Source of the DNA: Geotalea uraniireducens Rf4
Lineage (GTDB): Bacteria > Desulfobacterota > Desulfuromonadia > Geobacterales > Geobacteraceae
Direction: 5' to 3'
NCBI RefSeq assembly: GCF_000016745.1
Contig: NC_009483.1
Location: 4,620,001 to 4,652,000 of the forward strand
DNA length: 32,000 nucleotides
In this document: positions 1 to 27,175 of the stretch, one piece after another
Position numbering within the stretch: position 1 is the stretch's first letter
How the letters are laid out: the number at the start of each line of letters is the position of its first letter
The notes under the pieces: generated by a model
Database searches by the model: none
Seen by the model: the letters and a program-made list of their open reading frames with translations, nothing else
What the model was told of the DNA's origin: nothing
Made by a program: the position numbers and the translations under genes

Positions 1-867
1 GCTTGCCAGCGCCGCCATGATGTTGTCGATGTTATGCACCCCTTTAAGCCGGAAGGAAGCGGTTGCAAAAAGCTCCTCGCGCCCTTCCCAGCGGTAGACT
101 ATGGAGCCGTTGCGGTAGAAAATCCCCTGCGCCAACTCCTGCCGCTGACTTGTGGGCACCACCCGCGCCTTCATTTTACCGGCATACGCGGCGACGAGCG
201 GGTCATCCATGTTAAGCACCGCATAATCCGCGCTGGTCTGGTTCTCGAAGATTCTCAGCTTGGCGTCGATATACTCCTGGTAGGTTGCGTAGCGGTCCAG
301 GTGGTCTTCGGTGATATTGAGCAGCACTGCCACCTGCGGCCGAAAATCGATGATTCCCTCAAGCTGGAACGAACTGAGTTCGACCACTACCCGGTCAACC
401 GCTTCGCCGCTTGTAACGAGCTCGATGAGCGGGTTACCGATATTGCCGCCGACAAAGGTCTTGAAACCGCAGGCAGCAAAAATCTCACCGGTCAGGGTCG
501 TAGTGGTGGTTTTACCGTTGGTGCCGGTAATGGCAACGAGGGGCGCTGTGAGAAACCGGGCAGCCAGTTCTATTTCGCTGATCACCGTCCGGCGCTGGGC
601 CTTGGCCAGCAGCAACGGCTTGATATCCATCGGCACACCGGGGCTGACGACAACCAGGTCCGCCATGAGGAAGCTGTGCCTCTCGTGCCTGCCAAGCTCA
701 TAATCGATATCCAGGTCGGCGAGCTGCTCCATTAACGGTGCGAGCGCCGCTTCATCCTTCATGTCGGTAACGGTGACCCGTGCCCCCCGCGCTGCCAGGA
801 AACGGGCCACGGCAACCCCGGTACGGGCCAGACCGACTACCAGTATTTTCTTGTTTAATAATTCCAT
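1..867 (-). CDS. murD: UDP-N-acetylmuramoylalanine--D-glutamate ligase MurD, N-terminal 289 codons (C-terminus lies beyond window start)
   Basis: Reverse frame is open from ATG (867-865) to position 1. My translation starts [35 protein letters not shown] and contains the Mur-ligase P-loop [10 protein letters not shown]. It lies downstream of mraY as in canonical dcw clusters. It is absent from the ORF track because there is no stop in the window; + ORF 34..735 is its antisense shadow. Confidence 0.9.
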
Positions 868-883
868 GTTCCTCTTCGCATTC

Positions 884-958
884 GTAGGGGCGGGGTTCCC
901 CCGCCCTGGTTGCCGCGCCCTGGTTCCCCCGCCCAGGGCGGGGGAACCCCGCCCCTAC
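884..958. repeat. GC-rich REP-like perfect inverted repeat (26-nt arms, 23-nt spacer) in the mraY-murD intergenic gap
   Basis: GTAGGGGCGGGGTTCCCCCGCCCTGG (884-909) is the exact reverse complement of CCAGGGCGGGGGAACCCCGCCCCTAC (933-958). Each arm is itself internally palindromic (GGGCGGGG/CCCCGCCC). The spacer repeats CCCTGGTT. Confidence 0.85.
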
Positions 959-968
959 ATCATTATGT

Positions 969-2045
969 CTACCGCATCTTCAGCGTCGAGATGGCCACCA
1001 GCGCCAGGATGATGGTGATGATCCAGAAACGGACGATGATCTTCGGTTCGGCGACCCCCTTCAGCTCGAAGTGATGATGGATGGGCGCCATGCGGAAGAT
1101 CCTCTTGCCGCGATATTTGTACGACCCGACCTGAAAGATTACAGAGAGCGCCTCGACGACGAAAACGCCGCCGACGATGACCAGCAGGATTTCCTGCTTG
1201 GTGATGACCGCCAGGGTCCCGAGCCCCCCCCCGAGGGAGAGGGAACCCACATCCCCCATGAACACCTCGGCGGGATAGGAATTGTACCAGAGGAAGCCGA
1301 GCCCCGCCCCGACCATGGCGCCGCAAAGCACGGCAAGCTCACCGGAACCGGGAACATAAGGGATCTGCAGGTAACCTGAGAGCTTCGCGTTGCCGGCAAT
1401 ATAGGTAAAGAGCAGATAGGTAGCGGCGTTGATCGCCACCGGGCCGATGGCGAGGCCGTCCAGGCCGTCGGTGAGATTCACCGCATTACTCGCCCCGACA
1501 ATGACAAGGGTGACGAACGGGATGTACAACAGTCCCAGGTCAGGGTGGAGACGCTTAAAAAACGGAAAGTAGAGATCAGTGGAAAAGCCCGCCAGGTTAA
1601 AGAGGAAAATTCCCACCCCGCTCCCGAGCAGCACCTGCCAGAACATCTTCTGCCGTGGAGAGAGCCCTTTCGGGTTCTTTTCCACCACCTTCTTATAATC
1701 ATCGACAAAGCCGATCAGGCCGTAACCGGCGATAATAAAGAGCGTCAACCAGATATATACATTGGTCAGGTCGGCCCAGAGCAGCGTCGGTATGATAATG
1801 GCAGCGAGTATCAGCACTCCCCCCATGGTCGGCGTTCCCTGCTTCTTCAGGTGTGACTCGGGGCCGTCGGTCCGGATCACCTGACGGGCCTGGAGGCTCT
1901 CCAGCCTGCGGATGAGCCAGGGGCCGAGGATAAAGGCAACGACCAGCGCAGTAATCATGGCGTAGATGGTCCTGAAGGTCAGGTATTTGAATACGTTGAA
2001 CAGTTTATAACTGGATGCCAGCGGGAACAGCAGATGATAGAGCAT
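969..2045 (-). CDS. mraY: phospho-N-acetylmuramoyl-pentapeptide transferase
   Basis: 358-aa polytopic membrane ORF with MraY hallmarks ([33 protein letters not shown]). Its start overlaps the murF stop (TGATG). Position fits the dcw cluster. Confidence 0.95.
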
Positions 2046-3460
2046 CAGGCGACCTCGTTCTTTTCACCAGGCAGAGCAAAGCCTTGCCTGATGGCTTCCG
2101 CCACGATATCCATGCGCATACCGCGCGACCCCTTGACCAGAATATTGTCCCCCTTGGCCACCCTGCGGCGCAGGTCGGCAATAATCTCCTCATGGGTACG
2201 AGCCACGACGATGTTTTCCGGGCTGAGACCACCGTCAACCGCTCCGGCCGCGACAGTCTCCGCCATCTCGCCCATGGCGTAGAGGCGCTCTACGCAGGTT
2301 GCGGCAAGAAGCCCCACCTCACGGTGGGCTGCCACAGAGCCTGTACCCAGTTCCAGCATATCTCCAAGGATCGCAATGGCACGGCTCTCTTCGCGTATAT
2401 CGCGGAGAGTCACAAGCGCCGCCGCCATGGAGGCCGGATTTGCATTATAGCTGTCATCAACGAGCACTACGCCGCGGATCTCTTCCAGACTGAACCGTTT
2501 GTCATAGGGGGTGAACTCCTCCAGCCCCGAACGGATCAGCTCCGGGTCCACTCCGAGCAGATGGGCGGCAGCGGCGGCAGCCAGGGCATTGTACACATTA
2601 TGCAGGCCATAAGCCTTCATCCGCACCGGCACATCCACTCCCGGAAGGCGAAGGGTGAAGCGGAGCCCTTCTCTGCCTAGGCTCTCAATCCCTTCTGAAC
2701 TCACCTCCGCCCCGCGGAGGCCGAAGGAAAGCCTCTTTACGCCGGCAGGAGCCGGGCATCGGGAGATGAGCGGGTCGTCGGCATTATACACTGCCCAGCC
2801 GTCTGTCTTGAGACGCATGAACAGCTCGCCTTTCGCCTTTGCCACAGCCTCCACACTCCCCATGCTCTCCAGGTGAGCGGTAAAAGCATTGGTAATGACC
2901 CCTATCCGTGGGTTCGCCATTTCCGCCAGACGGTCTATTTCTCCAGGCTCACTCATTCCCATCTCAAGGACCGCCCAGCGATCCCTTTTCGTCAGGCGCA
3001 GCAGCATCAACGGTAAGCCGATCAGGTTATTCAGATTGCCGCTGGTCTTCAATCCAGGCCCGGTCTGCGCCAGAATTGTGGCCAGCATCTCTTTGGTGGT
3101 GGTTTTGCCGTTGCTCCCCGTGATCCCGACCAGCGGCAAGTCGAACCGGCTGCGATGCCAGGCAGCCAGGTCACCGAGCGCCCTTAGGGTATCGGGTACT
3201 GCCACATAAATTACGTCGTTTGGTGGTTGCTTGCCGGCAAGCCGGTCCGCAGCAACAAGAAAAGCGCGGACACCTCTGGCAACCGCAGCCTCCAGATAGT
3301 CATGTCCGTCGAATCGTTCTCCCTTTAAAGCAACGAAGAGCTCACCGGCAGCAACCTGCCGCGAATCGGTGGAAACGCCGGAAACAGCATCGTTGCCGCT
3401 GCCGATCCTGGTCCCACCGGTTGCTTCGATTATCTCGTCGATTGTGAACATGCGCGCCAT
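2045..3460 (-). CDS. murF: UDP-N-acetylmuramoyl-tripeptide--D-alanyl-D-alanine ligase
   Basis: Mur ligase motifs ([22 protein letters not shown]) and dcw position. The ORF track start is 3475, but the ATG at 3460 ([10 protein letters not shown]) follows a GAGGGA Shine-Dalgarno and is the likelier start. Confidence 0.9.
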
Positions 3461-3480
3461 TCTTCCCTCAACCATAACAT

Positions 3481-5001
3481 TTATCCGGCAAGCTCACGGC
3501 ACGCTTGCGCCGCCTCTTCCCGGTCGTCGAAATGATGCTTTTCGCTGCCGATAATCTGGTAATCCTCATGCCCTTTGCCGGCCAACAGGACGATATCTCC
3601 CGGTCTCGCCGCCGCTACCGCCAGCCTGATCGCCTCGCGGCGCGACTCGACGGCGGCGTACCCCTTTTCGCTGAAACCGTGGCGCAATTCCTCACTGCCG
3701 TATTCCCTGATACCCAGAGGAACTATCCCCTCCCGCACTCCGGCAATGATCTTCTCCGGATCTTCGCTTCTGGGATTGTCAGAGGTTATGATGCTCAAAT
3801 CACTGTAGCGCCCCGCGATCTCTCCCATCACCGGACGCTTTCCCCGGTCGCGGTCGCCACCGCAGCCAAAGACCGTTATAATGCGCCCTTTTTTCAGCTC
3901 GGTCAGGGTGCGCAACACGTTTTCCAGGGCATCACCGGTATGGGCATAGTCAACGAGAATGGTGAGTCCGCGGTCATTGGCAACCCGTTCCACCCGCCCC
4001 GGAACTTGTGGATGGTGCTCGAGACCCTCATGGATTGCATCAAGCGGCAGCTCCATGGCGATTCCGGCTGCAGTTGCAGCCAGAATGTTATAAAGGTTGA
4101 AACGGCCCAGCAGTTCCGAATGGAGGTTAATCTGTCCTTGCGGGGTTACCAGGACGCAGCTGATGCCGGCTACGGAAAACACCACCCGCTCCGCACGTAC
4201 GTGGGCATTACCGGAGATGCCGTATGAAAGGACAGGACAGGCAGCACCCTGCACTATCCGCGGACCGTATGGGTCATCGATATTAACTACTGCGCAACGT
4301 TTCGGCTTTATCCGGTCTGCAGCGAGGAGTTCGGAGAAGAGCCGCATTTTGCTCTGAAAATACGACTCCATATCAAGATGGTAATCCAGGTGGTCGCGGG
4401 TCAGGTTGGTAAATACGCCTACATCGAAGCAGCATCCGTCTACCCTCCGCTGCTGGAGGGCATGGGAAGAAACCTCCATGACAACCCCCTTGGCCCCCAT
4501 GTCGATTAATTCTCGCAGGGTCCGCTGCAGATCAACGGATTCGGGTGTTGTATTGGGGGCCGGGATGGCCTTTTCTCTGAAACGATAATTGACCGTGCCC
4601 AGCACGGCCGCAGGTATACCACTCTTCTCAAGAATCGATTCAATCAGGTACGTTATGGTCGTTTTGCCGTTTGTACCGGTAATGCCGACGAGCGGCAGGG
4701 TAGCAGTCGGGAAGCCGTAGAAGGCAGCAGCCATCCGAGACATGGCCAACCTGGCATCGGCTACCCGCACCCATGGTATTCCTTGTGGAGTCAGGGTCCC
4801 ATCAACCACAACGGCAACTGCTCCGGCTTTTATCGCTGTATCGACAAAGCTGTATCCGTCGCTGGCAACCCCCTTTAAAGCGAAAAAGAGTCCACCGGCC
4901 TTCACCCTCCGGGAATCGTAGTAAAGCCCCTCGATTTCCGGGTCGGCGCCACCGCCAACTTCAAGCGGCATAACGGATTTTGTCAATTCGGAAAGTAGCA
5001 T
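3481..5001 (-). CDS. murE: UDP-N-acetylmuramoyl-L-alanyl-D-glutamate--2,6-diaminopimelate ligase
   Basis: 506-aa ORF with [11 protein letters not shown]-loop, VMEVSSHAL, a DNPR motif (ITSDNPRSEDP) and dcw order. Confidence 0.93.
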   Translation of the reverse strand: MLLSELTKSVMPLEVGGGADPEIEGLYYDSRRVKAGGLFFALKGVASDGYSFVDTAIKAGAVAVVVDGTLTPQGIPWVRVADARLAMSRMAAAFYGFPTATLPLVGITGTNGKTTITYLIESILEKSGIPAAVLGTVNYRFREKAIPAPNTTPESVDLQRTLRELIDMGAKGVVMEVSSHALQQRRVDGCCFDVGVFTNLTRDHLDYHLDMESYFQSKMRLFSELLAADRIKPKRCAVVNIDDPYGPRIVQGAACPVLSYGISGNAHVRAERVVFSVAGISCVLVTPQGQINLHSELLGRFNLYNILAATAAGIAMELPLDAIHEGLEHHPQVPGRVERVANDRGLTILVDYAHTGDALENVLRTLTELKKGRIITVFGCGGDRDRGKRPVMGEIAGRYSDLSIITSDNPRSEDPEKIIAGVREGIVPLGIREYGSEELRHGFSEKGYAAVESRREAIRLAVAAARPGDIVLLAGKGHEDYQIIGSEKHHFDDREEAAQACRELAG

Positions 5002-5053
5002 TTGACCTCAAACATGGGCAATTGTCAAAAGTTATTTCTCAGAGTTCTGTTCG

Positions 5054-7027
5054 TCAGGCAGCCGGAACAAACTTGACCCAGACCTGATCGTTCGCACCAA
5101 TCCGGCTCCCGGCCATTGGATTTTGTTCTACAGCCCGACCGCTCCCCAGCAACTTGACGTTGATGCCGCGTTTTTCCATGATTTTCAGTACCTGGCGCAT
5201 GCTCAGCCCCTGGAAATTCGGCATTACCGTCCCCCCCGTGCCGTCTACTATACCCCCGTCAGCCACAGCATCGGCCGTTTCGACAGAGGGAGTCGCCTTT
5301 GCCTCTAGCTGCTCAGGCCTTTTTTTCATCCCCTTGTCCGGTGGAACTTTCAGGTAGCAGAGTGCCTGCTGGGCAATGGCGCTGAACGCAGGTGCGGCCA
5401 CTACCCCTCCGTAGGAGCTGGTCTTCGGCTCATCGATTACCACCAGGATGGTCAATCGTGGCTTTTCCAAGGGAACAAAACCGACAAACGAAGCGGTCCG
5501 CTTGTTTACGGAATACCCCCTCGTAAGAGGATCGACCTTTTGGGCAGTTCCCGTCTTTCCCGCAGAGCGATAGCCGTCAACAGCGGCATTTACCCCGGTT
5601 CCCCCTTCAACTACGACACCTTCCAGCATCCTCGCAACAGTTTTTGCCGTCTCTGGCGAAAGAATCCGTCGCTTAACCACAGGAGCAAAGACCTGCAATG
5701 CATTACCACTGTCATCGCTGATCTTTTCCACCAGATACGGCTTCATAAGCAATCCGCCGTTGGCAACTGCCGAAACCGCCGTCGCGATTTGCAAGGCAGT
5801 GGCTGAAACCCCCTGGCCAAAAGATATGGTGGCGAGATCCACACCGAACCATTGATTCTTGTTGCGCAGGTTGCCGCCTGATTCCCCCGGCAGATCTATA
5901 CCGCTCCTTTCGCCGAAACCGAAATTGGTAAGTGCTGCATAGAGCCGTTCCTGGCCAAGCCTGGTCCCTATCTTTGCTGCACCGATATTGCTGGAGTATT
6001 TCAGAATCTGGGCAACGCTGAGACCGCCGTATCTATGGGTATCGTGTATGGTCCTGCCGCCGATGCTGTAACTGCCGTTCTCGCAGTTGAAGCCATCGGT
6101 CGGCCGTATCACTTTCTCTTCAAGTGCCGCAGCGACAAGAAAAATCTTGAAAGTCGAGCCAGGCTCAAAACTGTCCGATATGGATCGGTTTCTCAATGCC
6201 TGCGGCGAATACTTGAAATAGGTATTCGGGTTGAAATTCGGGTAGTTGGCCATGGCCAGCACACGGCCCGTCTCCGGCTCCATCACCAGGGCAATCCCCG
6301 CCTTGGCGCCGTTTGTCTCCACTGCCTTGGTCAATTCCTTCTCAGCGATATACTGAATGTTTTTATCGAGGGTAAGGGTGACGTTGTGTCCCTTGTCCGC
6401 ACTTTTCACCACCGCCCCTTTCAGGTCGATGTCCCGGCCCAGGGCATCCCGCTCGGTTACCAGGTAACCGGTACTGCCGAGAATGGTGGAGTCATATTTC
6501 AGCTCGATCCCCTCCAAACCTTCAGGGTCCAGTCCGGTGAAGCCCACCACATGGGAAGCTACCTCGGAGTTGGGATAAAATCGTTTGCCTTCCTTGACAA
6601 AGCCTATGCCATCCAGATCGAGAGACTTGATCCTGGCCACGAGATCCGGCGCCATTCGTCGCTGGAGCCAGACAAAGTTTTTATTCCCATTGAGCTTCTT
6701 TTCCACCTGCTCTTTCGGCAGCGCCAAAAGCGGGGCAAGCTTGGCCGCCGCTTCGGGCAGGCTCTCCATGTTGCGCGGCTCCGCATAGCAGGAATCCATC
6801 TCGATGGAAACGGCCAGCGGGGCATTATTACTGTCGAATATGACGCCGCGGGCCGGCGTCAGAGGCACGATACGCTGATGCTGTTTTTCCGCCAGCTTGA
6901 CCAACGAATCTTTTTTTACCACCTGCAGATAAAAGGCACGGGATGCGACCAGGACAAAAATGGTGACAAAGAGCACCCACATCAAACGGATGCGGACTCT
7001 TGTCCATTTTTCCCTGCTGTCCATCAT
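5054..7027 (-). CDS. ftsI: division-specific class B penicillin-binding protein (FtsI/PBP3) with C-terminal PASTA domain
   Basis: 657 aa with an N-terminal TM anchor and transpeptidase motifs STFK (PGSTFKIF), SSN (YSSNIG) and KTGT (GKTGTAQK). The last ~57 aa (VMPNFQGLSMRQVLKIMEKRGINVKLLGSGRAVEQNPMAGSRIGANDQVWVKF) match the PASTA consensus. There is an ATGA overlap with ftsL. Confidence 0.93.
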   Translation of the reverse strand: MMDSREKWTRVRIRLMWVLFVTIFVLVASRAFYLQVVKKDSLVKLAEKQHQRIVPLTPARGVIFDSNNAPLAVSIEMDSCYAEPRNMESLPEAAAKLAPLLALPKEQVEKKLNGNKNFVWLQRRMAPDLVARIKSLDLDGIGFVKEGKRFYPNSEVASHVVGFTGLDPEGLEGIELKYDSTILGSTGYLVTERDALGRDIDLKGAVVKSADKGHNVTLTLDKNIQYIAEKELTKAVETNGAKAGIALVMEPETGRVLAMANYPNFNPNTYFKYSPQALRNRSISDSFEPGSTFKIFLVAAALEEKVIRPTDGFNCENGSYSIGGRTIHDTHRYGGLSVAQILKYSSNIGAAKIGTRLGQERLYAALTNFGFGERSGIDLPGESGGNLRNKNQWFGVDLATISFGQGVSATALQIATAVSAVANGGLLMKPYLVEKISDDSGNALQVFAPVVKRRILSPETAKTVARMLEGVVVEGGTGVNAAVDGYRSAGKTGTAQKVDPLTRGYSVNKRTASFVGFVPLEKPRLTILVVIDEPKTSSYGGVVAAPAFSAIAQQALCYLKVPPDKGMKKRPEQLEAKATPSVETADAVADGGIVDGTGGTVMPNFQGLSMRQVLKIMEKRGINVKLLGSGRAVEQNPMAGSRIGANDQVWVKFVPAA

Positions 7028-7359
7028 TTTACGACAACCACCTGTTGTTCCGTCGGCATCGTCATGCCAAGTTCGCCCTTGGCAAGCGCCTCGATCCTGG
7101 CAGGCGTTTTCAATGAAGCAACCTCCAGCTTGAGCCGCTTATTCTCCTGCTGTTGCTCCTTGTATGAACCGTTCGTGCCAACAATCTGGAGATTCAAATC
7201 GATAACCTTCACCCGTGACCAGACATGGAAGATGGAAACCACGGTTACCATCGCCATGACTGCCGTCAGGTAGGGAAATGAACTCCAGCGCAAATCAACA
7301 ACAGCGGCGCTCTTTGTTGGAGCAGCTACTTTGCTGAATGTCGCTTTACTATGTGCCAT
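7024..7359 (-). CDS. ftsL: cell division protein FtsL
   Basis: Small bitopic protein (TM LTAVMAMVTVVSIFHVW followed by coiled coil) between rsmH and ftsI. The ATG at 7359 is preceded by GGGGAGG at good spacing. The track start at 7374 is also ATG but lacks an SD. Confidence 0.8.
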   Translation of the reverse strand: MAHSKATFSKVAAPTKSAAVVDLRWSSFPYLTAVMAMVTVVSIFHVWSRVKVIDLNLQIVGTNGSYKEQQQENKRLKLEVASLKTPARIEALAKGELGMTMPTEQQVVVVK

Positions 7360-7378
7360 ATGCAGCCTCCCCATAATT

Positions 7379-8317
7379 CTAAATCTTTTCGGCAGCTCTC
7401 AGCCTGGCGCTGCGCGAGCGAGGGTTCATCGACACCTCCGCCTCATTTGCCATTACCGGCTTGCCGGTTATTACCTTGACCAGAGGCAGTTTGCCGCACA
7501 CGCAGCGCGGGATGCTCTTTGGGCAGGTACAACCTTGGGCAAAGGAACGAAAACTGGTTTTGACTATTCGGTCTTCCAGGGAGTGGAACGATATGACGAC
7601 CCCTCGCCCCCCCTTTTTCAGAAACCTTACACCAGCGGCCAGCGCCTTTTCCAGACTTGCCAACTCATCATTAACCGCTATGCGCAACGCCTGGAAGGTT
7701 CGTGTCGCCGGGTGAAGCCGAACATCCCATGCCCCGCGAGGAACCGCCCCCTTTATCACATCGACCAGTTGCATGGTGGTTTCAATGGGCGACTCTTCCC
7801 GTCTTTTGACAATGAATGCGGCAATCCTTTTTGCCCAGCGTTCTTCTCCGTAGTCCCAGATGATCCGGGCCAAATCTGCCTCGGAAAGAGTATTCACCAG
7901 ATCCGACGCACTTTGGCCGGAACTGACGTCCATTCGCATATCGAGGGGAGCATCGTGCTGGAAACTGAACCCCCGCGCCGCTGTATCCAACTGATGGGAG
8001 GAAACCCCCACATCGAGGAGAAACCCGTCGATTGCATCTATACCCATTTCATCCAGGGTCTCTGCCAAGCAGGCAAAATTCCTCTGAACCAGCCGCACCC
8101 TCTCCCCGTAAGGTGCAAGCCGTTCTGCCGCAATTGCTATTGCCTCCCGGTCCCGGTCGAATCCGATCAACAGACCGTCGGGAGCCGAGGCCTCCAGAAT
8201 CTGCCGGGCATGCCCCCCACCGCCGAGAGTGCCGTCCACATAGATACCGCCGGCCCGTGGCGCCAGATATTGGATAACCTCCGCCGCCATGACTGATATA
8301 TGGTGAAAATCCGACAC
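7379..8317 (-). CDS. rsmH: 16S rRNA (cytosine1402-N4)-methyltransferase
   Basis: 312 aa with characteristic [20 protein letters not shown]-like ([10 protein letters not shown]) and SFHSLEDR motifs. It is the second gene of the dcw cluster. Confidence 0.95.
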
Positions 8318-8800
8318 CTAAAGGCCCAACTCAGCCAGCACCGGAGAATCAATGGGAAAGTTCTGCTCGTCCTGCCTGCAAACCTTCTCCCACTCCGCCT
8401 GGCTCCATATCTCCGCCTTGTTCAGCATCCCGACGAAGAGAATTTCCCGCTCCAGGACGGCGCTCTTGCGGAGATGGGGCGGAACAAGCACACGCCCGAG
8501 CTTGTCGGCGACACACTCGATGGCCGGCGCCACGATCCGCCGCTTGACGGCGGCAAGCTCGGCAGATGAAAGCCCCAATCCAGTACCGACCATGAGCTTC
8601 TCCTCCAGTGCGAGCCATTCCTTGTAAGGATAAACGACGAGACCCGAACTGTACACACCCTCTCCAAGCCTCACCGGATTGGAATTGGTGATAAAAAACC
8701 GCTCATCGCCAAAGGTCTCAAAGAGCACATCCCGGAACTTGGCCGGCAAGCTCGTTCGCCCCTTGACGTCGATAGTTGTCTCGAATTTCCCTCTAAACAT
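8318..8800 (-). CDS. mraZ: transcriptional regulator MraZ
   Basis: MFRGKFETTIDVKGRTSLPAKFR is a typical MraZ N-terminus, and the duplicated SpoVT/AbrB-like halves each carry a G-R/DxxGRxxxP-type motif (VKGRTSLP, DKLGRVLVP). The track start at 8824 is a GTG inside the operator repeats; ATG 8800 is preferred. Confidence 0.9.
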   Translation of the reverse strand: MFRGKFETTIDVKGRTSLPAKFRDVLFETFGDERFFITNSNPVRLGEGVYSSGLVVYPYKEWLALEEKLMVGTGLGLSSAELAAVKRRIVAPAIECVADKLGRVLVPPHLRKSAVLEREILFVGMLNKAEIWSQAEWEKVCRQDEQNFPIDSPVLAELGL

Positions 8801-8813
8801 GGTCACCCTGGCA

Positions 8814-8848
8814 CTACTTTCCACACTTTACCACTTTATACCACTTTA
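8814..8848 (-). promoter_or_regulatory. putative MraZ operator: phased direct repeats (AAAGTGG boxes, 10-bp period)
   Basis: On the + strand CCAC occurs at 8821, 8831 and 8841 (ccacacttta ccactttata ccactttacg), exactly 10 bp apart. A degenerate fourth box CTACTTT lies at 8814-8820. The reverse strand reads AAAGTGG/AAAGTGG/AAAGTGTGG/AAAGTAG, between the -10 element and the mraZ ATG. Confidence 0.6.
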
Positions 8849-21293: not shown

Positions 21294-21839
21294 CTAATTT
21301 TTTCTACCAGTTTTCTGAATTAATTTTTCATGCGGATTGAGGAAAAACATCCTCTCGAAACCATATTTTTCTGATTTATATTCCCATACATAAGGAATTT
21401 GCGTAATTATGGCGTAATGCAGATGTGGAGCTTTTCCAACTGCATTGCCAGTAGCGCCGACTGTCCCTATTTCTGAGCCTTGTTGGACAAATTCACCACT
21501 ACCGACTTTTAGAGTTTTTAGGTGAGCATAGTAGTGAACCCGCCATTTTGGCCCAAGGACAGAGATGACGTTGCCCCCATCTTTATTGGATTCAGCAGAT
21601 ACAACAAGGCCAGAACAAGCGGCAATAACAGGAGTTCCTTCTTTAGCAAAAATATCGATCCCTTTGTGAACGCCAGATTTGCCCCACGGGCTGAACCAGA
21701 AGGATTTTGAGTTCCAATCTGCTCTGGTTGCGCCCTTGACTGGAATTATTAATTCTTCAGGCAAGAATAGGCCACCGCACAAAACGATGCTCGCCAGAAT
21801 GGCGGCAACAAATACAAATTTTTTCAAAGGAAATTTCAT
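21294..21839 (-). CDS. M23 family metallopeptidase (LytM-type), N-terminally anchored
   Basis: 181 aa with a hydrophobic N-terminus (FVFVAAILASIVLCGGLF), HxxxD (HKGID) and HxH (PHLHY) zinc motifs, plus the typical GTVGATGNAVGKAPHLH block. Confidence 0.85.
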   Translation of the reverse strand: MKFPLKKFVFVAAILASIVLCGGLFLPEELIIPVKGATRADWNSKSFWFSPWGKSGVHKGIDIFAKEGTPVIAACSGLVVSAESNKDGGNVISVLGPKWRVHYYAHLKTLKVGSGEFVQQGSEIGTVGATGNAVGKAPHLHYAIITQIPYVWEYKSEKYGFERMFFLNPHEKLIQKTGRKN

Positions 21840-21873: not shown

Positions 21874-22983
21874 TTATTTCTTCAGAAACAACTCAGGGTT
21901 ACTTAACCACAGAGCAAAGTAAGGATAATCCCCATTCTTTTGTTTGAGACAAATCAGGAATGGTTTGTCGAAAACAAATTTCCTTGGCTTTTCCACACTT
22001 GGTGGTGGGACCTCTTCTTTCATCATGTTGAGGAATCCCCTAGATTTAAGTACGGCCCCCTTCTCATCCAATTTGAATTTGATATCATGGGTCGCCTTTG
22101 CTATGAACCACCCTTCCCAACCTTTGTTTAATATCCGTTTGTTCTCCAGTTCAGTAAAGCTGTGGGTGATATCAAAATCAACCTTTGGAATTCTTAGGGG
22201 TTCATTCTCTCGCAGTTCAGACGCGTTAACTCCCATTCTATGCAGCACGGTTGTATATGTTTGTAAAAGGGTTTTATTAGGCGGAACTTTAGCCATAATT
22301 ATCTGGTCATCATTGGATTTACTGGTTAATACAAGAATAAAGTCGTTTTCGTTTCTGTAATCGAAAATAGAAACTTGGTTGGATAGTTTTTCGTGACGCC
22401 GATTAGATGAGGAAAATGATGGTATTCCAAACCCTTTTACATGTGCTTCGCGTCCATTGGCAATAAATGCAATTGGATCATCCAGCCTTTCGAATTCAGT
22501 CGGAAACTCCAAATTTTTGTACAGGAAAGCATATGCGATAAGCTGCCTGGCGCTACTCGTAGCTTGTGGGATATTGAACTCGTGTGCAACCTGCTCACCG
22601 AACTTTTCATGCAATTCTTTTTCAATTCTTGCGGCAAGGTTTTTCGACAACTCACCAGCTACTGCTACATATGACCCAGAAGATATGTCATTATTTCTCT
22701 GCAATTGCCGGTTCAGATTCTTGGCAAGGGGTGTATCAGGCTCAAGAATGATATCGCCCTTAATGATTTGATCACGCATAATATTCCAGGCCATCTGGAA
22801 TGATGCGCAGTAGAGCAAATTGTTACTTAAATTGATCTGATCCTCTAAATGTGAAGAAATGATTGTATGCTCAGTTTTTGTTATTGCGGATTGTGACTCA
22901 TTACCGTTGGTACACGCCGATACGTTAAACATTGAGCATAAACTGATTAAGATTGAGATTATTGATCCTAATTTTCTTTTCAT
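21874..22983 (-). CDS. serpin-family protein, predicted lipoprotein, atypical hinge
   Basis: The C-terminal serpin signature is KFVFDKPFLICLKQKNGDYPYFALWLSNP (compare F.ADxPFLF.I....ILF.G....P), with the breach/hinge LDEKGAVLKS. The start is moved to ATG 22983 (MKRKLGSIISILISLCSMFNVSAC) behind a GGAGG SD, and the lipobox is V-S-A-C. Confidence 0.75.
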   Translation of the reverse strand: MKRKLGSIISILISLCSMFNVSACTNGNESQSAITKTEHTIISSHLEDQINLSNNLLYCASFQMAWNIMRDQIIKGDIILEPDTPLAKNLNRQLQRNNDISSGSYVAVAGELSKNLAARIEKELHEKFGEQVAHEFNIPQATSSARQLIAYAFLYKNLEFPTEFERLDDPIAFIANGREAHVKGFGIPSFSSSNRRHEKLSNQVSIFDYRNENDFILVLTSKSNDDQIIMAKVPPNKTLLQTYTTVLHRMGVNASELRENEPLRIPKVDFDITHSFTELENKRILNKGWEGWFIAKATHDIKFKLDEKGAVLKSRGFLNMMKEEVPPPSVEKPRKFVFDKPFLICLKQKNGDYPYFALWLSNPELFLKK

Positions 22984-23013: not shown

Positions 23014-26000
23014 TCAAAGTGAATCCAAAGTTAATGATCCACCTTTTATAACCACATATGGTTCATTAGCGTCTGAACTTGGAGTTACGTATTTACCATC
23101 AGCAATACCTGCAGCTGATATCGCAGCGGATTTACCTGAAATAAAGCTACGCCACCAATCAAAAGCAAAATCTCCCGATTCAAAATATTCTACAGAGTGA
23201 GTCCACCCCATGAATACTAGATTATCGACACCAAATGAATTCATAAAACTACCCCGATCTCCAGAACGGCAGCTGTCAAGGAAAACAACACGTGCATTAG
23301 CTTTTGTAATATCGCCAGAATAAACATACTCCGGTTTACCGTCTTTATCATAACCTGGTATTAACATATCCCCATAGTCTGGGCTCGTATTTCCATGTCC
23401 GCTATAATATACAATCCAATTATCTGGCCTGTTGATAAGACTTAACAATTCTTCTTTAGAAAAAGTATACTCATGCCTTGGTATAAATCCTTTAGAAAGT
23501 AACATACCACCGATGGCAAAAATCATAATCTCATCATATCCAGCTCCAATCCATCTCCCTATCCCCCTATTTAAGGCGAACTGGTTTGCTGGTTTTCCTA
23601 GTGCAAGAGCTGCATATTGACGCGAAAGGAGCCTCCCCAACAGTGATATTGATGAAGGTGAACTGGTACTTCCTCCTCCTGCCAGCCCATTCGAAATCAT
23701 GTAAGCGCCTTCGCCAGTATCCGGGTTCCTCACTATGAATCCTGTACCGCTCCACTCATTGCGAGTGATCTTGCTTCCAGGAATTGTCACCTCTTTACCT
23801 GCAGCAACAGCATTTTGAATGTCATCTTTTACCTGTTGCGTCTGGTTCAGCAGCGGCAGGGTTTGACTTACATTTGCGCTATTGATCGTGTAAATCGTCT
23901 GCCCCGCCTCGTTTGCCAGCTGAAGTAGTTTTACCGTAGATACTGAATCAATCCCGGAAAAGCTTTCCCAAATAGCATGCTCAAAGTACGATGAATTGAG
24001 GCCTTGGATTTTGGTGAACGCCTTTTCTTGCTCCTTGTCGCCGATGATGGAAAATGGAGATTGAATGTATCTCGGGATGTCGATAACCAGCCCCGAAATG
24101 ATGGGGGGCGATACCATGAGCCCGAAAAACTCCCGGTACTTCGCCGATACTGAGACGAACCCGGCATTTACCGCTCTCGTGTTATAAATGTGCATCACAC
24201 CTTCGAGCACCTTTGAGGCATTATTCGTGTGGGTGAAGTATTGCAGGCCGATGTTGTGCAGTACCTTGCCGACCTGATTGTCCCCGCTGTTGATTGAATC
24301 GTAGAAGGTGCCGACGAGGTTTTCCGAGTTGTCTAGTCCCCCCAGTGCCTGTTTGCTTGCGACATTCAGGGCGGAAAGCCCGATGTTGTAATAGAGGCCA
24401 GCTGCCATTTCGGTTTCGATGGAGTCGCCGAAACTGCCGGGCGTGGAAAACTGTAGGTTAAGCTTCAACGATTCTCCCATGCCTATCGGCGGCCCTTCCA
24501 GGACAACCGTATCGTCAACTTTCACCCGCGCCTTGACTTTTATCAGATAGGCCGGTGTCTTCAGCAATCCTCCATAGTTGGTCATTACCGCGCTGTCTTG
24601 ATCTGTGGCGGGAGTGTAGGATACGGTGATTTGCTTTCCGGTCAGCTCACAGACGTCTTTCGTTATGGCTGTTGCATCATCTGTTGTGGGATCGCGCAGT
24701 CCTATTGAAATCTTGTGTCGCAGTAATGTATCGATACTTGCGAACTTGCTGCCGACAACGACCGTTTTGTACGGCAGCGTCCCAAGAAAGACGCCGAATT
24801 CGTGCTCTTTGATCTTTTTCAGGTAAAACATCTCATACATGCCACCCTGGTAGTTGGCAGTATGGTAGTCTTCCAAGGCGAACAGGTAGGTAAGTGAAGG
24901 GGGCAATTTGCTCTGAGCCCGCAGATAGTCGGACTCATTGAACTTAACAATCTTTGACATATCCACGGAGGTATTGAGTTCATGCTCCTTGAAGCTCGGG
25001 TCAATGGGTGTCCAGGCGTTACCAGGGCCATTCTTGGCGCCAAAGGATGGGTACATGTTGACATACGCCTCCACCCAGACATGCTCCAGACGGATCGTTG
25101 AAATTTTTCCACCGCTCACGCCTGCTTTTGCAGGTATCCCCCCTGTTGCCAGTATATTTGCCGCCGTAGTTGGGTCCTTGACTCCAATCCATGACATTAC
25201 CCTCTCGATTGGTATTTCAATGGTTCCTGTAACATATTTGGCTGGGATATTTGCCGCTCTTAACAGAGCAATCAACAAGCTGGCCTGGTCGTAGTTATTC
25301 CCGGATTTTTCCATCAGCGTCTGCTGCGCCCCTTTTAGGGAACCATAATACGGTTCATATTCAGCGTTGTTCCGCACCCACTCGTAAATCTTAACCGGGT
25401 TGTTCCCCAACTCCAGAGCCTTGGCCCTGATCTCAGGAGTCAACTGGACGTCAACAGTCTCCGCCAGATCAGCGGCAGTGGGTGGGGTAACGGCATTGAC
25501 CATGCTGGAGGTAAGCAACCCGGCCAAAGACCCCGCCGAGGCGACCATGATCCGCTTTTCATTTCTCCATGCGTTCTTGTCCTTCTTTAAATCCCGCTCA
25601 AACTCCTCCTTCTTCAGCCGCGGCTCCCGCTTTATCACCTTCGGCTGCCGGTGGGGAAGGTTGTTCGGATCAAGGGGCTGATGTCGTGTCGGAGCCTTCA
25701 CCTTTTCCAGGTGTTTCCGGGTCTTCTCGATCTCAGCCTCTGCTTCTTTCTTATCTTTGGCCTTCTCAACCCGCTCGATATTCCCCTTCAACTCAGCCAG
25801 ATTGTCGTCATAGTGCTTGACGAACCGGCGATGGCGCTCCAGAATCTCGGCCGGTAACTTGGCATCCTTAAGCCGCTTCTCCGTCTCGGCGAACTGCTTG
25901 CGGATATCCGTGTCGAGTGCGTCCACCTCCGCCTTTTTGAGCCGCAGGCGACCTTTCTTTGCTTCAATGTCCTCCTTCGGGTCGGCAAGTATCGCCTCCA

Positions 26001-26181
26001 TCTCCCCGGTAACTTTAGAAAATTTCTCCTCCGCCCCTTCCGGCTTTTTCTCCTGACGTTGCGTCTTTGCCTTCCTGGCCTCAACCTGCGCCGCATTGGC
26101 GATGCTGAACACCCCACCCGAAGTCCAGGTGAAAAAGCACAATATAACAGCTGCTATCGTCCTCGAATATTTGCGGAACAT
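23014..26181 (-). CDS. secreted 1,055-aa fusion protein: K/E-rich coiled coil, transglutaminase-like core lacking the Cys nucleophile, large middle region, C-terminal clan-CD (caspase/gingipain-like) His-Cys domain
   Basis: The signal peptide is MFRKYSRTIAAVILCFFTWTSGGVFSIANA. The TGase-core pattern is GNNYDQASLLIALLRAANIPAKYVTG ... LEHVWVEAYV ... WTPIDPS. The C-terminus has WIVYYSGHG ... VVFLDSCRSG. A GGGAGGA SD lies upstream. Confidence 0.75.
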   Translation of the reverse strand: MFRKYSRTIAAVILCFFTWTSGGVFSIANAAQVEARKAKTQRQEKKPEGAEEKFSKVTGEMEAILADPKEDIEAKKGRLRLKKAEVDALDTDIRKQFAETEKRLKDAKLPAEILERHRRFVKHYDDNLAELKGNIERVEKAKDKKEAEAEIEKTRKHLEKVKAPTRHQPLDPNNLPHRQPKVIKREPRLKKEEFERDLKKDKNAWRNEKRIMVASAGSLAGLLTSSMVNAVTPPTAADLAETVDVQLTPEIRAKALELGNNPVKIYEWVRNNAEYEPYYGSLKGAQQTLMEKSGNNYDQASLLIALLRAANIPAKYVTGTIEIPIERVMSWIGVKDPTTAANILATGGIPAKAGVSGGKISTIRLEHVWVEAYVNMYPSFGAKNGPGNAWTPIDPSFKEHELNTSVDMSKIVKFNESDYLRAQSKLPPSLTYLFALEDYHTANYQGGMYEMFYLKKIKEHEFGVFLGTLPYKTVVVGSKFASIDTLLRHKISIGLRDPTTDDATAITKDVCELTGKQITVSYTPATDQDSAVMTNYGGLLKTPAYLIKVKARVKVDDTVVLEGPPIGMGESLKLNLQFSTPGSFGDSIETEMAAGLYYNIGLSALNVASKQALGGLDNSENLVGTFYDSINSGDNQVGKVLHNIGLQYFTHTNNASKVLEGVMHIYNTRAVNAGFVSVSAKYREFFGLMVSPPIISGLVIDIPRYIQSPFSIIGDKEQEKAFTKIQGLNSSYFEHAIWESFSGIDSVSTVKLLQLANEAGQTIYTINSANVSQTLPLLNQTQQVKDDIQNAVAAGKEVTIPGSKITRNEWSGTGFIVRNPDTGEGAYMISNGLAGGGSTSSPSSISLLGRLLSRQYAALALGKPANQFALNRGIGRWIGAGYDEIMIFAIGGMLLSKGFIPRHEYTFSKEELLSLINRPDNWIVYYSGHGNTSPDYGDMLIPGYDKDGKPEYVYSGDITKANARVVFLDSCRSGDRGSFMNSFGVDNLVFMGWTHSVEYFESGDFAFDWWRSFISGKSAAISAAGIADGKYVTPSSDANEPYVVIKGGSLTLDSL

Positions 26182-26228: not shown

Positions 26229-26272
26229 AAAGTGTAAAAAATTTTTACAAGTGTAAAAATTTTTTACACTTT
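26229..26272. promoter_or_regulatory. 44-bp perfect palindrome (21-nt arms, 2-nt centre) / two tandem 19-bp quasi-palindromic units in the operon leader
   Basis: AAAGTGTAAAAAATTTTTACA-AG-TGTAAAAATTTTTTACACTTT. The arms are exact reverse complements. It also reads as AGTGTAAAAAATTTTTACA + AGTGTAAAAATTTTTTACA (TGT-N11-ACA twice). It lies 48-91 bp upstream of the 23014..26181 gene start. Confidence 0.6.
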
Positions 26273-26749: not shown

Positions 26750-27175
26750 ATGAAAGAAATTATCGGCAACATCTGGGATTATCAGGATAAGGCCATCATC
26801 GCCATAACCACCAACGGCCTGGTGGGGAAAACCGGGCTTGCTGTTTTCGGCCGGGGGTGCGCCAGACAGGCAATGGAACGCTTCCCCGACCTGCCGGCAC
26901 GGCTCGGCTCCTTGATCAATGCGCAAGGAAACCACGTTTTTTATCTGGGCAATGGGATTGTCAGCTTTCCTGTCGAGCATACCCCCTATGAAACGCCCGA
27001 CCTGCGCCTGATCAAACGTTCAGCCGGGGAGTTGGCAACACTTGCCGACAAAGAAGGGTGGCGCCTGGTGATCGTACCGAGGCCCGGATGCGGTGGCGGC
27101 GGCCTTGACTGGCGCGAAGTGAAACCGGTTCTGGAGAGTTGCCTCGACGACCGTTTCGTCATCATCTCCCAGTAA
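26750..27175 (+). CDS. small stand-alone macro-domain-like protein (ADP-ribose binding/hydrolase fold)
   Basis: 141 aa. GNIWDY..KAIIAITTNG...GLAVFGRGCARQAMERFP and LVIVPRPGCGGGGLDWREV mirror the GD(I/L)...AIV..(T/V)N....G.GIA and P.IGCG.GGL.W..V blocks of short phage-type macro domains. Confidence 0.55.
   Translation: MKEIIGNIWDYQDKAIIAITTNGLVGKTGLAVFGRGCARQAMERFPDLPARLGSLINAQGNHVFYLGNGIVSFPVEHTPYETPDLRLIKRSAGELATLADKEGWRLVIVPRPGCGGGGLDWREVKPVLESCLDDRFVIISQ

Follow-up and report, generated by a model that had tools for sequence, protein, structure and literature searches.

The locus and its domain architecture

The DNA analyzed here is a 32,000-nt window of the genome of Geotalea uraniireducens Rf4 (assembly GCF_000016745.1, NC_009483.1, positions 4,620,001-4,652,000). 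On its reverse strand, an open reading frame (ORF) encodes a protein of 1055 amino acids (aa) whose sequence agrees in full with the NCBI entry 'transglutaminase-like domain-containing protein [Geotalea uraniireducens]' and which is followed by a gene for a serpin-like lipoprotein, a gene for an M23 peptidase, and a gene for a giant exported protein (Table 1). The protein consists of a conserved region of about 836 residues, here called the carrier, and a C-terminal tail with a caspase-like cysteine peptidase domain. The ORF probably encodes a polymorphic toxin exported via the Sec pathway, with the caspase-like tail as its warhead and the serpin as the candidate cognate immunity protein. An earlier note, made from the DNA sequence alone, had described the same ORF as a fusion of a transglutaminase (TGase) fold lacking its nucleophile to a caspase-like domain with an intact His/Cys dyad; the ORF, residues, and codons quoted in that note proved to be exact throughout when the sequence was re-read.

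Table 1. Features of the locus, given as window coordinates except for the orphan cassettes, which are given by locus
Feature	Coordinates	Strand	Basis and remarks
Whole ORF, 1055 aa	23014..26181	-	carrier module (aa 1 to ~836) plus variable C-terminal candidate warhead
Clan-CD cysteine peptidase domain (caspase/CHAT-like), aa 850-1055	23017..23634	-	AF2 model, Foldseek, profile searches, conserved dyad
Junction motif W810-x-G-x-G-Y..N-P-x-T-G-x-G-A-Y-M-I-S-G-G-L-x-G-G836	23674..23754	-	conserved; homologs diverge completely beyond it
Transglutaminase-like core, aa 247-395, without Cys	24997..25443	-	Pfam, 3isr alignment, homolog survey
Family-specific central module, aa 396-838, mixed alpha/beta	23668..24996	-	structure model, Foldseek
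Charged K/E/R/A-rich N-terminal region, aa 31-214, probably helical	25540..26091	-	composition, sequence conservation in the family
Putative Sec signal peptide, aa 1-30, MFRKYSRTIAAVILCFFTWTSGGVFSIANA/AQ	26092..26181	-	read from the sequence
Divergent serpin, lipoprotein-type signal peptide (…VSAC)	21874..22983	-	family profile vs PDB; candidate cognate inhibitor/immunity protein
Peptidase_M23, HxxxD and HxH motifs intact	21294..21839	-	Pfam; between serpin and giant gene
Giant exported protein, 2528 aa	13635..21221	-	conserved operon partner of the carrier family
Orphan tail cassettes	L049 (two); L061 13941-15020; L080 3316-4065; L052 10016-10519		short ORFs in other genomes

The C-terminal domain is caspase-like

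The clan-CD pattern that the earlier note had read from the tail is borne out by the predicted fold, by structural matches, and by the invariance of the dyad. H929 (CAT, 23395-23397) and C971 (TGC, 23269-23271) are located behind hydrophobic strands in the motifs WIVYYSGH929G and RVVFLDSC971, and the spacing of 42 residues between them is within the range of the family. Both residues are invariant in an alignment of 25 diverse tails with 24-70% identity to the query as well as in 16 tails derived from the loci described below. A model of aa 850-1055, which was calculated with AlphaFold2 (AF2) from the 25-tail alignment, reached a predicted local distance difference test score (pLDDT) of 93.9 and a predicted template modeling score (pTM) of 0.91. 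Foldseek searches of the PDB with this model resulted in 24 matches with E<=1e-3, with probabilities of up to 1.00 and TMq values of up to 0.65, and among the top 50 matches listed (E up to 2.9e-3) all are clan-CD enzymes. The best match is the SAVED-CHAT protein 8tl0 (E=1.2e-6, TMq 0.64), and further top matches comprise metacaspases from Candida and yeast, the CHAT domain of DdvA, gingipain R, the caspases 1, 3, 7, 9, and 11, separase, Craspase, and MALT1.

A word-seeded search with the C-terminal domain alone yielded four proteins; instead, 1.84 billion representatives were searched exhaustively with a profile, and 688 relatives of the domain were found. Among 64 distant relatives, 15 match the Pfam family CHAT, five Peptidase_C14, and one Peptidase_C13; the dyad His and Cys are the sole invariant columns across these proteins, and PepSY and DUF4901 domains are fused to some of them. 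When the profile was compared to PDB sequences, it retrieved metacaspases, CHAT proteins, and MALT1 (E=0.13-2), and the YSGHG and DSCHSG motifs of metacaspases were placed opposite its YSGHG and DSC. These links to clan CD from sequence alone, like those to the Pfam and NCBIfam models given below, are individually non-significant; they were accepted only in combination with the Foldseek matches and the relatives reached indirectly via the profile. Taken together, the C-terminal domain is confirmed as caspase-like at the level of the predicted fold with an intact dyad, and it is most closely related to CHAT and metacaspase proteases.

The tail is exchanged at a fixed junction

Alignments of most homologs cover aa 1 to about 836 of the query and then stop at a conserved junction motif. 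Among the tails of the 120 best homologs, 31 are caspase-like and about 15 resemble NlpC/P60-CHAP enzymes, a type that was confirmed by Pfam. Further tails are frequently short and rich in transmembrane (TM) segments (100-130 aa), others are Cys-rich, and several classes among the 120 tails have no Pfam match at all. In the sequence collection, at least 956 proteins belong to the carrier family. When GTDB was scanned with one genome for each species, two sequence patterns including FVKHYDDN being used for retrieval, 214 relatives were revealed, from which 76 distinct loci were obtained. These span Geobacterales, Nitrospirota, Syntrophia, and others, and several paralogs per genome are common. 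In nearly all loci a small ORF of variable size follows within about 30 nt, and copies are often arranged in tandem. In addition, orphan tail cassettes exist, in which short ORFs match only positions ~620-710 to ~850 of the hidden Markov model (HMM) of the carrier before a new tail begins. On the basis of these sequence comparisons, the caspase-like domain is evidently one of many exchangeable C-terminal cassettes on a common carrier of about 836 aa, and not part of a one-off fusion of two enzymes, as the framing of the earlier note had implied. The fixed junction, the unrelated tails, the variable small downstream ORFs, and the orphan cassettes are features of polymorphic toxin loci.

Several loci show individual arrangements. 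Tandem full-length paralogs, each with its own small downstream ORF, are present in L006, L021, L024, L047, L055, L068, and L077; both copies in L006 (5894-9055 and 9935-13114) have caspase tails, and each is followed by its own gene of family X (see below). In L043 (10001-18235) and L071 (9941-18253) the carrier, which is matched by the HMM to position ~820-830, does not end in a tail of ~200 aa and runs on into one ORF with a length of about 2750 aa; a long repeat or surface protein may have been fused to the carrier there. In L001, from a metagenome-assembled genome of Trichlorobacter lovleyi, genes for TnsB, a TniB/TnsC-like protein, TniQ/TnsD, and TnsE_C (1-7290) are located directly upstream of the orthologous toxin-like gene, and the module may be cargo of a Tn7-like transposon there.

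The downstream genes follow the tail

The earlier note had placed a serpin gene next to the ORF. The protein alone remains under the Pfam Serpin cut-off (18.3 bits vs 27), and its assignment was made with a profile of its family (34 members), which matched 35 PDB sequences, all of them serpins. These include PAI-1 as the best match (3.6e-5), Serpin-12, which was aligned over positions 118-362, and alpha-1-antitrypsin. Two members of the family reach PF00079, and one has been named 'serpin family protein' by NCBI. The N-termini in the family are signal peptides of the lipoprotein type (…VSAC, …LGGCS), and the segment FVFDKPFLICL fits the PROSITE serpin signature. Judged from its family profile, the downstream protein is thus a true but divergent serpin. 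Its hinge reads E-K-G-A-V-L-K-S-R-G, with A, L, S, and G at the even, buried positions P14, P12, P10, and P8, which are small or hydrophobic residues; the reactive-centre loop is about …DEKGAVLKSRGFLNMMKEEVPPP… and carries an M-K-E-E segment that is conserved across the family. Hinge and loop would be compatible with an inhibitory serpin.

For a comparison across loci, the first downstream ORFs were clustered into partner families. Caspase tails are followed by the serpin or by a second family, X, in 12 of 13 cases, and other tails in none of 74 (Fisher p=7e-14; this and the following p-values ignore shared ancestry and overstate the evidence). Over all pairs of loci, similarity of the tails is associated with similarity of the downstream ORFs with an odds ratio of 286 (p=3e-65), and this association persists with an odds ratio of 171 (p=4e-20) when the caspase tails are left out. 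The serpin is the partner in the window, in L007, and in L009, and in L005 an X gene is followed by a serpin gene. In the phylogeny of the caspase tails, those from the window, L007, and L009 group together as a clade that has the serpin as its only partner and is nested within the X-partnered tails. An independent divergent pair is found in L081, where a serpin with 37% identity to the one in the window follows a divergent caspase tail.

Family X consists of proteins of about 310 aa with lipoprotein-like N-termini and two PepSY-like repeats; its cluster has 11 members, or nine once two duplicate loci are removed. Of ten members examined, four match PepSY (best E=3.5e-4) and two DUF4901, mostly below the cut-offs, and the X-family profile has no match among PDB sequences. 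The downstream genes of L001 and L003 had been considered as serpins and were rejected as such because of identities of 15-23%; they belong to this separate PepSY-like family. Both partner types are predicted to be exported and probably have folds of protease inhibitors, which suggests that the site of action of the protease is outside the cytoplasm.

The carrier contains a degenerate transglutaminase domain

The Pfam family Transglut_core (PF01841) matches aa 247-395 with E=1.2e-16 and 61.3 bits, compared to a gathering cut-off of 23. The nucleophile region reads G294, N295, N296, Y, D, Q, A, with N296 encoded by AAC at 25294-25296, and the catalytic Cys of the solved TGase-like protein 3isr is placed opposite N296 ('ERAGVCRDFAHL' here vs 'EKSGNNYDQASL' in 3isr). 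The catalytic-type His and Asp are retained as H367 (CAT, 25081-25083) and D394 (GAC, 25000-25002). In this respect the domain agrees with the earlier note, which had described a TGase core that kept His and Asp after loss of the nucleophile. The note had further regarded this loss as a specific Cys-to-Asn replacement and had raised the question of whether Asn is conserved at this position, neither of which describes the family. In the 120 best homologs, which were used for the column statistics, the nucleophile column contains Ala in 74 cases, Asp in 36, Ser in 8, Asn in one, and Val in one, and Cys in none of the 120. The closest orthologs all have Asp (GND[YF]D), so that a single exchange, D to N, sets the Geotalea protein apart from them.

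Other positions of the domain are nearly invariant, with H367 conserved in 118, D394 in 120, N295 in 119, and D298 in 120 of the 120 homologs. As the nucleophile column is mostly occupied by Ala, which cannot be a nucleophile, the TGase domain would be a conserved pseudoenzyme; it is predicted from its sequence to be catalytically dead and is most likely a binding module. In the whole protein there are only three Cys residues, at positions 15, 511, and 971.

Other parts of the carrier and neighboring genes

The region between the signal peptide and the TGase core is rich in charged residues, as had been noted before, with 18% K, 15% E, 10.5% A, and 10% R in aa 30-210. The coiled coil that had been proposed for aa ~30-210 receives a weak signal, namely a scarcity of Pro and Gly in aa 78-163 and a modest hydrophobic periodicity of 3.5 residues. 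Since the sequence of the charged region is conserved throughout the family, for example in FVKHYDDN, it is more than a low-complexity linker. The model of the central module (aa 396-838) has a pLDDT of 79; there is no significant relative in the PDB according to Foldseek (best E=0.034, probability 0.10) and no Pfam match for this module. RHS or other repeat families were not found in the ORF with Pfam at E<=1.

The tail, the serpin gene, and the M23 gene differ in composition from their surroundings. The GC content at third codon positions (GC3) is 0.60-0.70 in the codons for aa 1-700 of the carrier, 0.51 for aa 701-836, and 0.27 for aa 837-1055; the genes for the serpin, the M23 peptidase, and the giant protein have values of 0.41, 0.37, and 0.70, respectively. 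The total GC content of the clan-CD tail is 0.38. Thus, the low GC3 of tail, serpin, and M23 between native-looking genes, with a break near the junction motif, points to a cassette of foreign composition. An M23 gene is present in 8 of the 80 loci, all eight of which have caspase tails and no other tail type. The M23 peptidase might be a co-effector, provide a second immunity function, or remodel peptidoglycan.

The giant protein has an N-terminal domain of the alpha/alpha-toroid type (prenyltransferase/TED-like), for which the matches to TED_complement and prenyltransferases are weak, followed by seven CARDB repeats, FG-GAP, and Glucodextran_B. Its C-terminal tail is rich in His, Asp, and Arg (…HHHHSDDDRDGRHDRDDDD). 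A homolog of the giant N-terminal domain is encoded on the same strand in 53 of the 80 loci. A function of the giant protein as a thioester trap was considered and rejected, as the CxEQ thioester motif known from alpha-2-macroglobulin-like proteins was looked for in the protein and not found.

Two tandem AT-rich palindromes of 17 bp, TGTAAAAAATTTTTACA and TGTAAAAATTTTTTACA, are located at 26233-26249 and 26252-26268, 52-87 nt upstream of the ATG of the ORF, and are operator-like in appearance; they are absent upstream of 14 orthologous or paralogous genes and were discarded as a conserved operator. Just upstream of the toxin-like gene, the opposite strand contains an ORF of 141 aa (26750-27175, +) with a very weak Macro-domain match (E=0.14). 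About 5 kb beyond the giant gene, the start of the dcw cluster (969-8824, -) encodes mraZ, mraW (rsmH), a penicillin-binding protein of the FtsI type, murE, murF, and mraY; no connection of this cluster to the toxin-like locus is apparent.

Relation to known systems

The architecture, which the earlier note had not recognized, is of a kind that has already been described. Zhang, de Souza, Anantharaman, Iyer, and Aravind (2012, PMC3482391) reported polymorphic toxins with inactive N-terminal transglutaminase domains as well as C-terminal Tox-Caspase domains. They placed the 'Inactive transglutaminase' type among the toxins exported via Sec and type II secretion and proposed that its TGase domain binds peptides and anchors the toxin. 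The Geotalea protein resembles these toxins in its signal peptide, in a TGase domain that has lost catalytic residues, and in the many C-terminal toxin types on one carrier. It differs from them in that a charged helical region of about 185 aa precedes the TGase domain, which in the toxins of PMC3482391 follows the signal peptide immediately, and in that a module of about 440 aa without PDB relative replaces the RHS array behind it. Moreover, only the Cys is lost in the Geotalea TGase domain and His and Asp are kept, unlike in the inactive-TGase toxins. Members from Geobacter or uraniireducens are not mentioned in the text of PMC3482391.

With Tox-Caspase domains, the C-terminal domain shares the caspase-like fold, the H, C dyad, and the position at the extreme C-terminus of a polymorphic toxin. 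Within such toxins, the majority of Tox-Caspase versions have been regarded as releasing peptidases, and Imm36 is the sole immunity family listed for them (PMC3482391). In contrast, the partners in the Geotalea-type loci are an exported serpin or PepSY-like lipoproteins, and as these are exported lipoproteins, the caspase-like domain would act outside the cytoplasm, which sets it apart from the Tox-Caspase/Imm36 pair. Serpins are not mentioned in PMC3482391, and a search of the literature found no link between serpins and polymorphic-toxin immunity. That a serpin can act on a clan-CD protease has a mechanistic precedent in the inhibition of metacaspases, namely of AtMC9 and AtMC1 by AtSerpin1 and of CrMCA-I by CrSERPIN (PMC10609998). 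These serpins are eukaryotic regulators of endogenous proteases, whereas the Geotalea serpin is a bacterial lipoprotein that is co-inherited with an effector warhead and for which inhibition is only proposed. The structurally most similar peptidases are CHAT and metacaspase enzymes (8tl0, DdvA 8rot, 4f6o from yeast, 7qp1 from Candida) with the same placement of the dyad motifs. Compared to these structures, the Geotalea domain is minimal with about 200 aa, shares 9-17% identity, and has no SAVED, TPR, or p10-type additions; it is also predicted to be exported, whereas the CHAT and metacaspase peptidases are cytoplasmic.

In the contact-dependent inhibition (CDI) and Rhs systems, CdiA-CT/CdiI and Rhs-CT/RhsI are characterized by a conserved carrier, a sharp junction motif, a variable C-terminal region, an immunity gene directly downstream, and orphan cassettes of C-terminal region and immunity gene. 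The Geotalea family is similar in its conserved carrier, its sharply delimited junction motif, its variable tails, and a candidate immunity gene located directly downstream, and also in that its orphan cassettes retain a stretch of the conserved region. Unlike CDI and Rhs, it has no two-partner secretion domain, FHA repeats, CdiB, RHS, PAAR, or VgrG, and its junction motif differs from VENN and PxxxxDPxGL. A further analogy exists to LapG, a small periplasmic TGase-like protease with a Cys-His-Asp triad that processes the giant adhesin LapA, as the carrier could likewise be a TGase-fold protein of the periplasm in functional association with a giant surface protein. The difference is that LapG has the Cys, whereas the Geotalea carrier family lacks it and has polymorphic tails. 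Thus, the kind of system is known, and the present carrier, with its novel-fold module and giant partner and without RHS, and the serpin and PepSY-like lipoprotein partners appear to be undescribed.

Interpretation and alternative explanations

The polymorphic toxin reading would assign the following roles. The carrier is found in hundreds of proteins from Geobacterales, Nitrospirota, and related groups; it consists of the putative signal peptide, the charged helical region, a Cys-less TGase domain that would serve for binding, and the module of about 440 aa, and it bears unrelated tails as candidate warheads behind the junction motif …NPxTGxGAYMISGGLxGG. In the Geotalea gene, the presumably toxic warhead would be a compact clan-CD cysteine protease with His929 and Cys971 acting in the periplasm. 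The lipoprotein serpin would be exported to the same compartment and trap the protease by a suicide-substrate mechanism, by which the producer and its kin would be protected; in sister loci, a PepSY-like lipoprotein would take over this role. Tail, serpin, and M23 would travel together as a low-GC cassette that recombined onto a native carrier gene.

Several observations weigh against this reading. The caspase-like domain itself stays below the cut-offs of Pfam Peptidase_C14 (13.7 bits vs 21.4, E=0.051) and NCBIfam caspase_w_EACC1 (15.5 vs 140 bits, E=0.009). The serpin hinge, in which P11 is Lys and P9 is Arg, is not classically Ala-rich, and inhibitory competence is therefore not assured. 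Distant members of the serpin family with 32-37% identity, P0180 and L082 6001-7104, are located in unrelated contexts with no TGase-like or caspase-like gene next to them, and may represent orphan immunity genes or periplasmic serpins that function on their own; in G. daltonii (L004) there is no small gene between the toxin-like and the giant gene. The loci compared for tail and partner are not phylogenetically independent. No delivery apparatus of the type V, type VI, or type VII secretion systems or of the RHS type is recognizable, and the synteny with the giant surface protein also fits a housekeeping role in surface-protein biogenesis.

Such a housekeeping envelope system is the strongest of the alternatives and is considered unlikely, with a probability that is nevertheless far from negligible. 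The TGase-like protein would then be a periplasmic or surface accessory of the giant CARDB/alpha-toroid protein, the tail enzyme would process or anchor this protein or make room for it in the peptidoglycan, and the serpin or PepSY-like protein would serve as a regulator or a prodomain-like chaperone. Apart from the frequent neighborhood of the giant gene, this is consistent with the M23 peptidase and the NlpC/P60-CHAP tails, which are types of peptidoglycan hydrolases, with the numerous TM-rich tails that could serve as anchors, and with the general role of LapG and of PorU, a clan-CD enzyme, as processors of surface proteins. However, the TGase domain has no nucleophile, which makes a LapG-like action impossible, and a housekeeping function predicts neither the tail swaps at a fixed junction, the orphan cassettes, and the tandem paralogs with different tails in the same genome nor the strict covariation of tail and downstream gene and the cassette of foreign composition.

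It is improbable that the caspase-like domain is an autoprocessing peptidase for release or maturation, which would cut the carrier to which it is attached, for instance within the linker at aa 837-880 that is rich in Ser and Gly, with the serpin only timing this event. The flexible Ser-rich linker between junction and caspase-like domain would suit such a function, as would the releasing activity ascribed to most Tox-Caspase versions (PMC3482391), but no further module that could be released follows the domain, and it occupies the exact slot of other warheads (NlpC/P60, TM-rich) in the paralogs. Furthermore, a dedicated, exported, and co-evolving inhibitor fits protection from a toxic activity better. 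Still less probable is a bifunctional protein, in which the TGase-like domain would be an enzyme with a nucleophile other than Cys or with a chemistry based on His and Asp. The near-invariance of H367, D394, N295, and D298 and the Asp at the nucleophile position of close orthologs would speak for this, but the residues in the nucleophile column (mostly Ala, then Asp, Ser, Asn, and Val) are chemically incompatible with one another, and an alternative nucleophile was rejected on these grounds. Conserved His and Asp residues would be expected just as much if the domain had a structural role or bound a ligand, and analogous domains have been judged to be inactive and peptide-binding (PMC3482391).

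Beyond the polymorphic toxin reading of the single ORF, it is tentatively proposed, at a clearly lower level of confidence, that the family constitutes a widespread and so far uncharacterized system of contact-dependent antagonism in Geobacterales, Nitrospirota, and Syntrophia. Carrier and giant CARDB/alpha-toroid protein might together deliver the warheads into the periplasm of neighboring cells, and in the branch with caspase warheads, classical folds of protease inhibitors (serpins or PepSY-like lipoproteins) might have been recruited as immunity proteins. The serpin would then be the first one to act as a toxin-immunity protein, in a bacterial serpin/clan-CD pair co-evolving under conflict.

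Implications

If the toxin interpretation is correct, the carrier family would represent a large family of effectors with swappable tips, comprising at least 956 proteins as well as the 214 relatives in GTDB species representatives, and the majority of its warheads would be without recognizable domain. It would occur in environmentally important anaerobes such as relatives of Geobacter, Nitrospirota, and syntrophs, in which interbacterial antagonism is almost unstudied. The TGase fold as a non-catalytic module with preserved His and Asp would be informative on the evolution of pseudoenzymes. In case of the housekeeping explanation, the locus would still represent a new system that assists in the biogenesis of giant surface proteins. 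As a toxin locus, it would provide a genetically defined bacterial pair of a serpin and a caspase-like protease, with which the role of serpins in toxin immunity and the specificity of a minimal clan-CD protease of 200 residues could be addressed.

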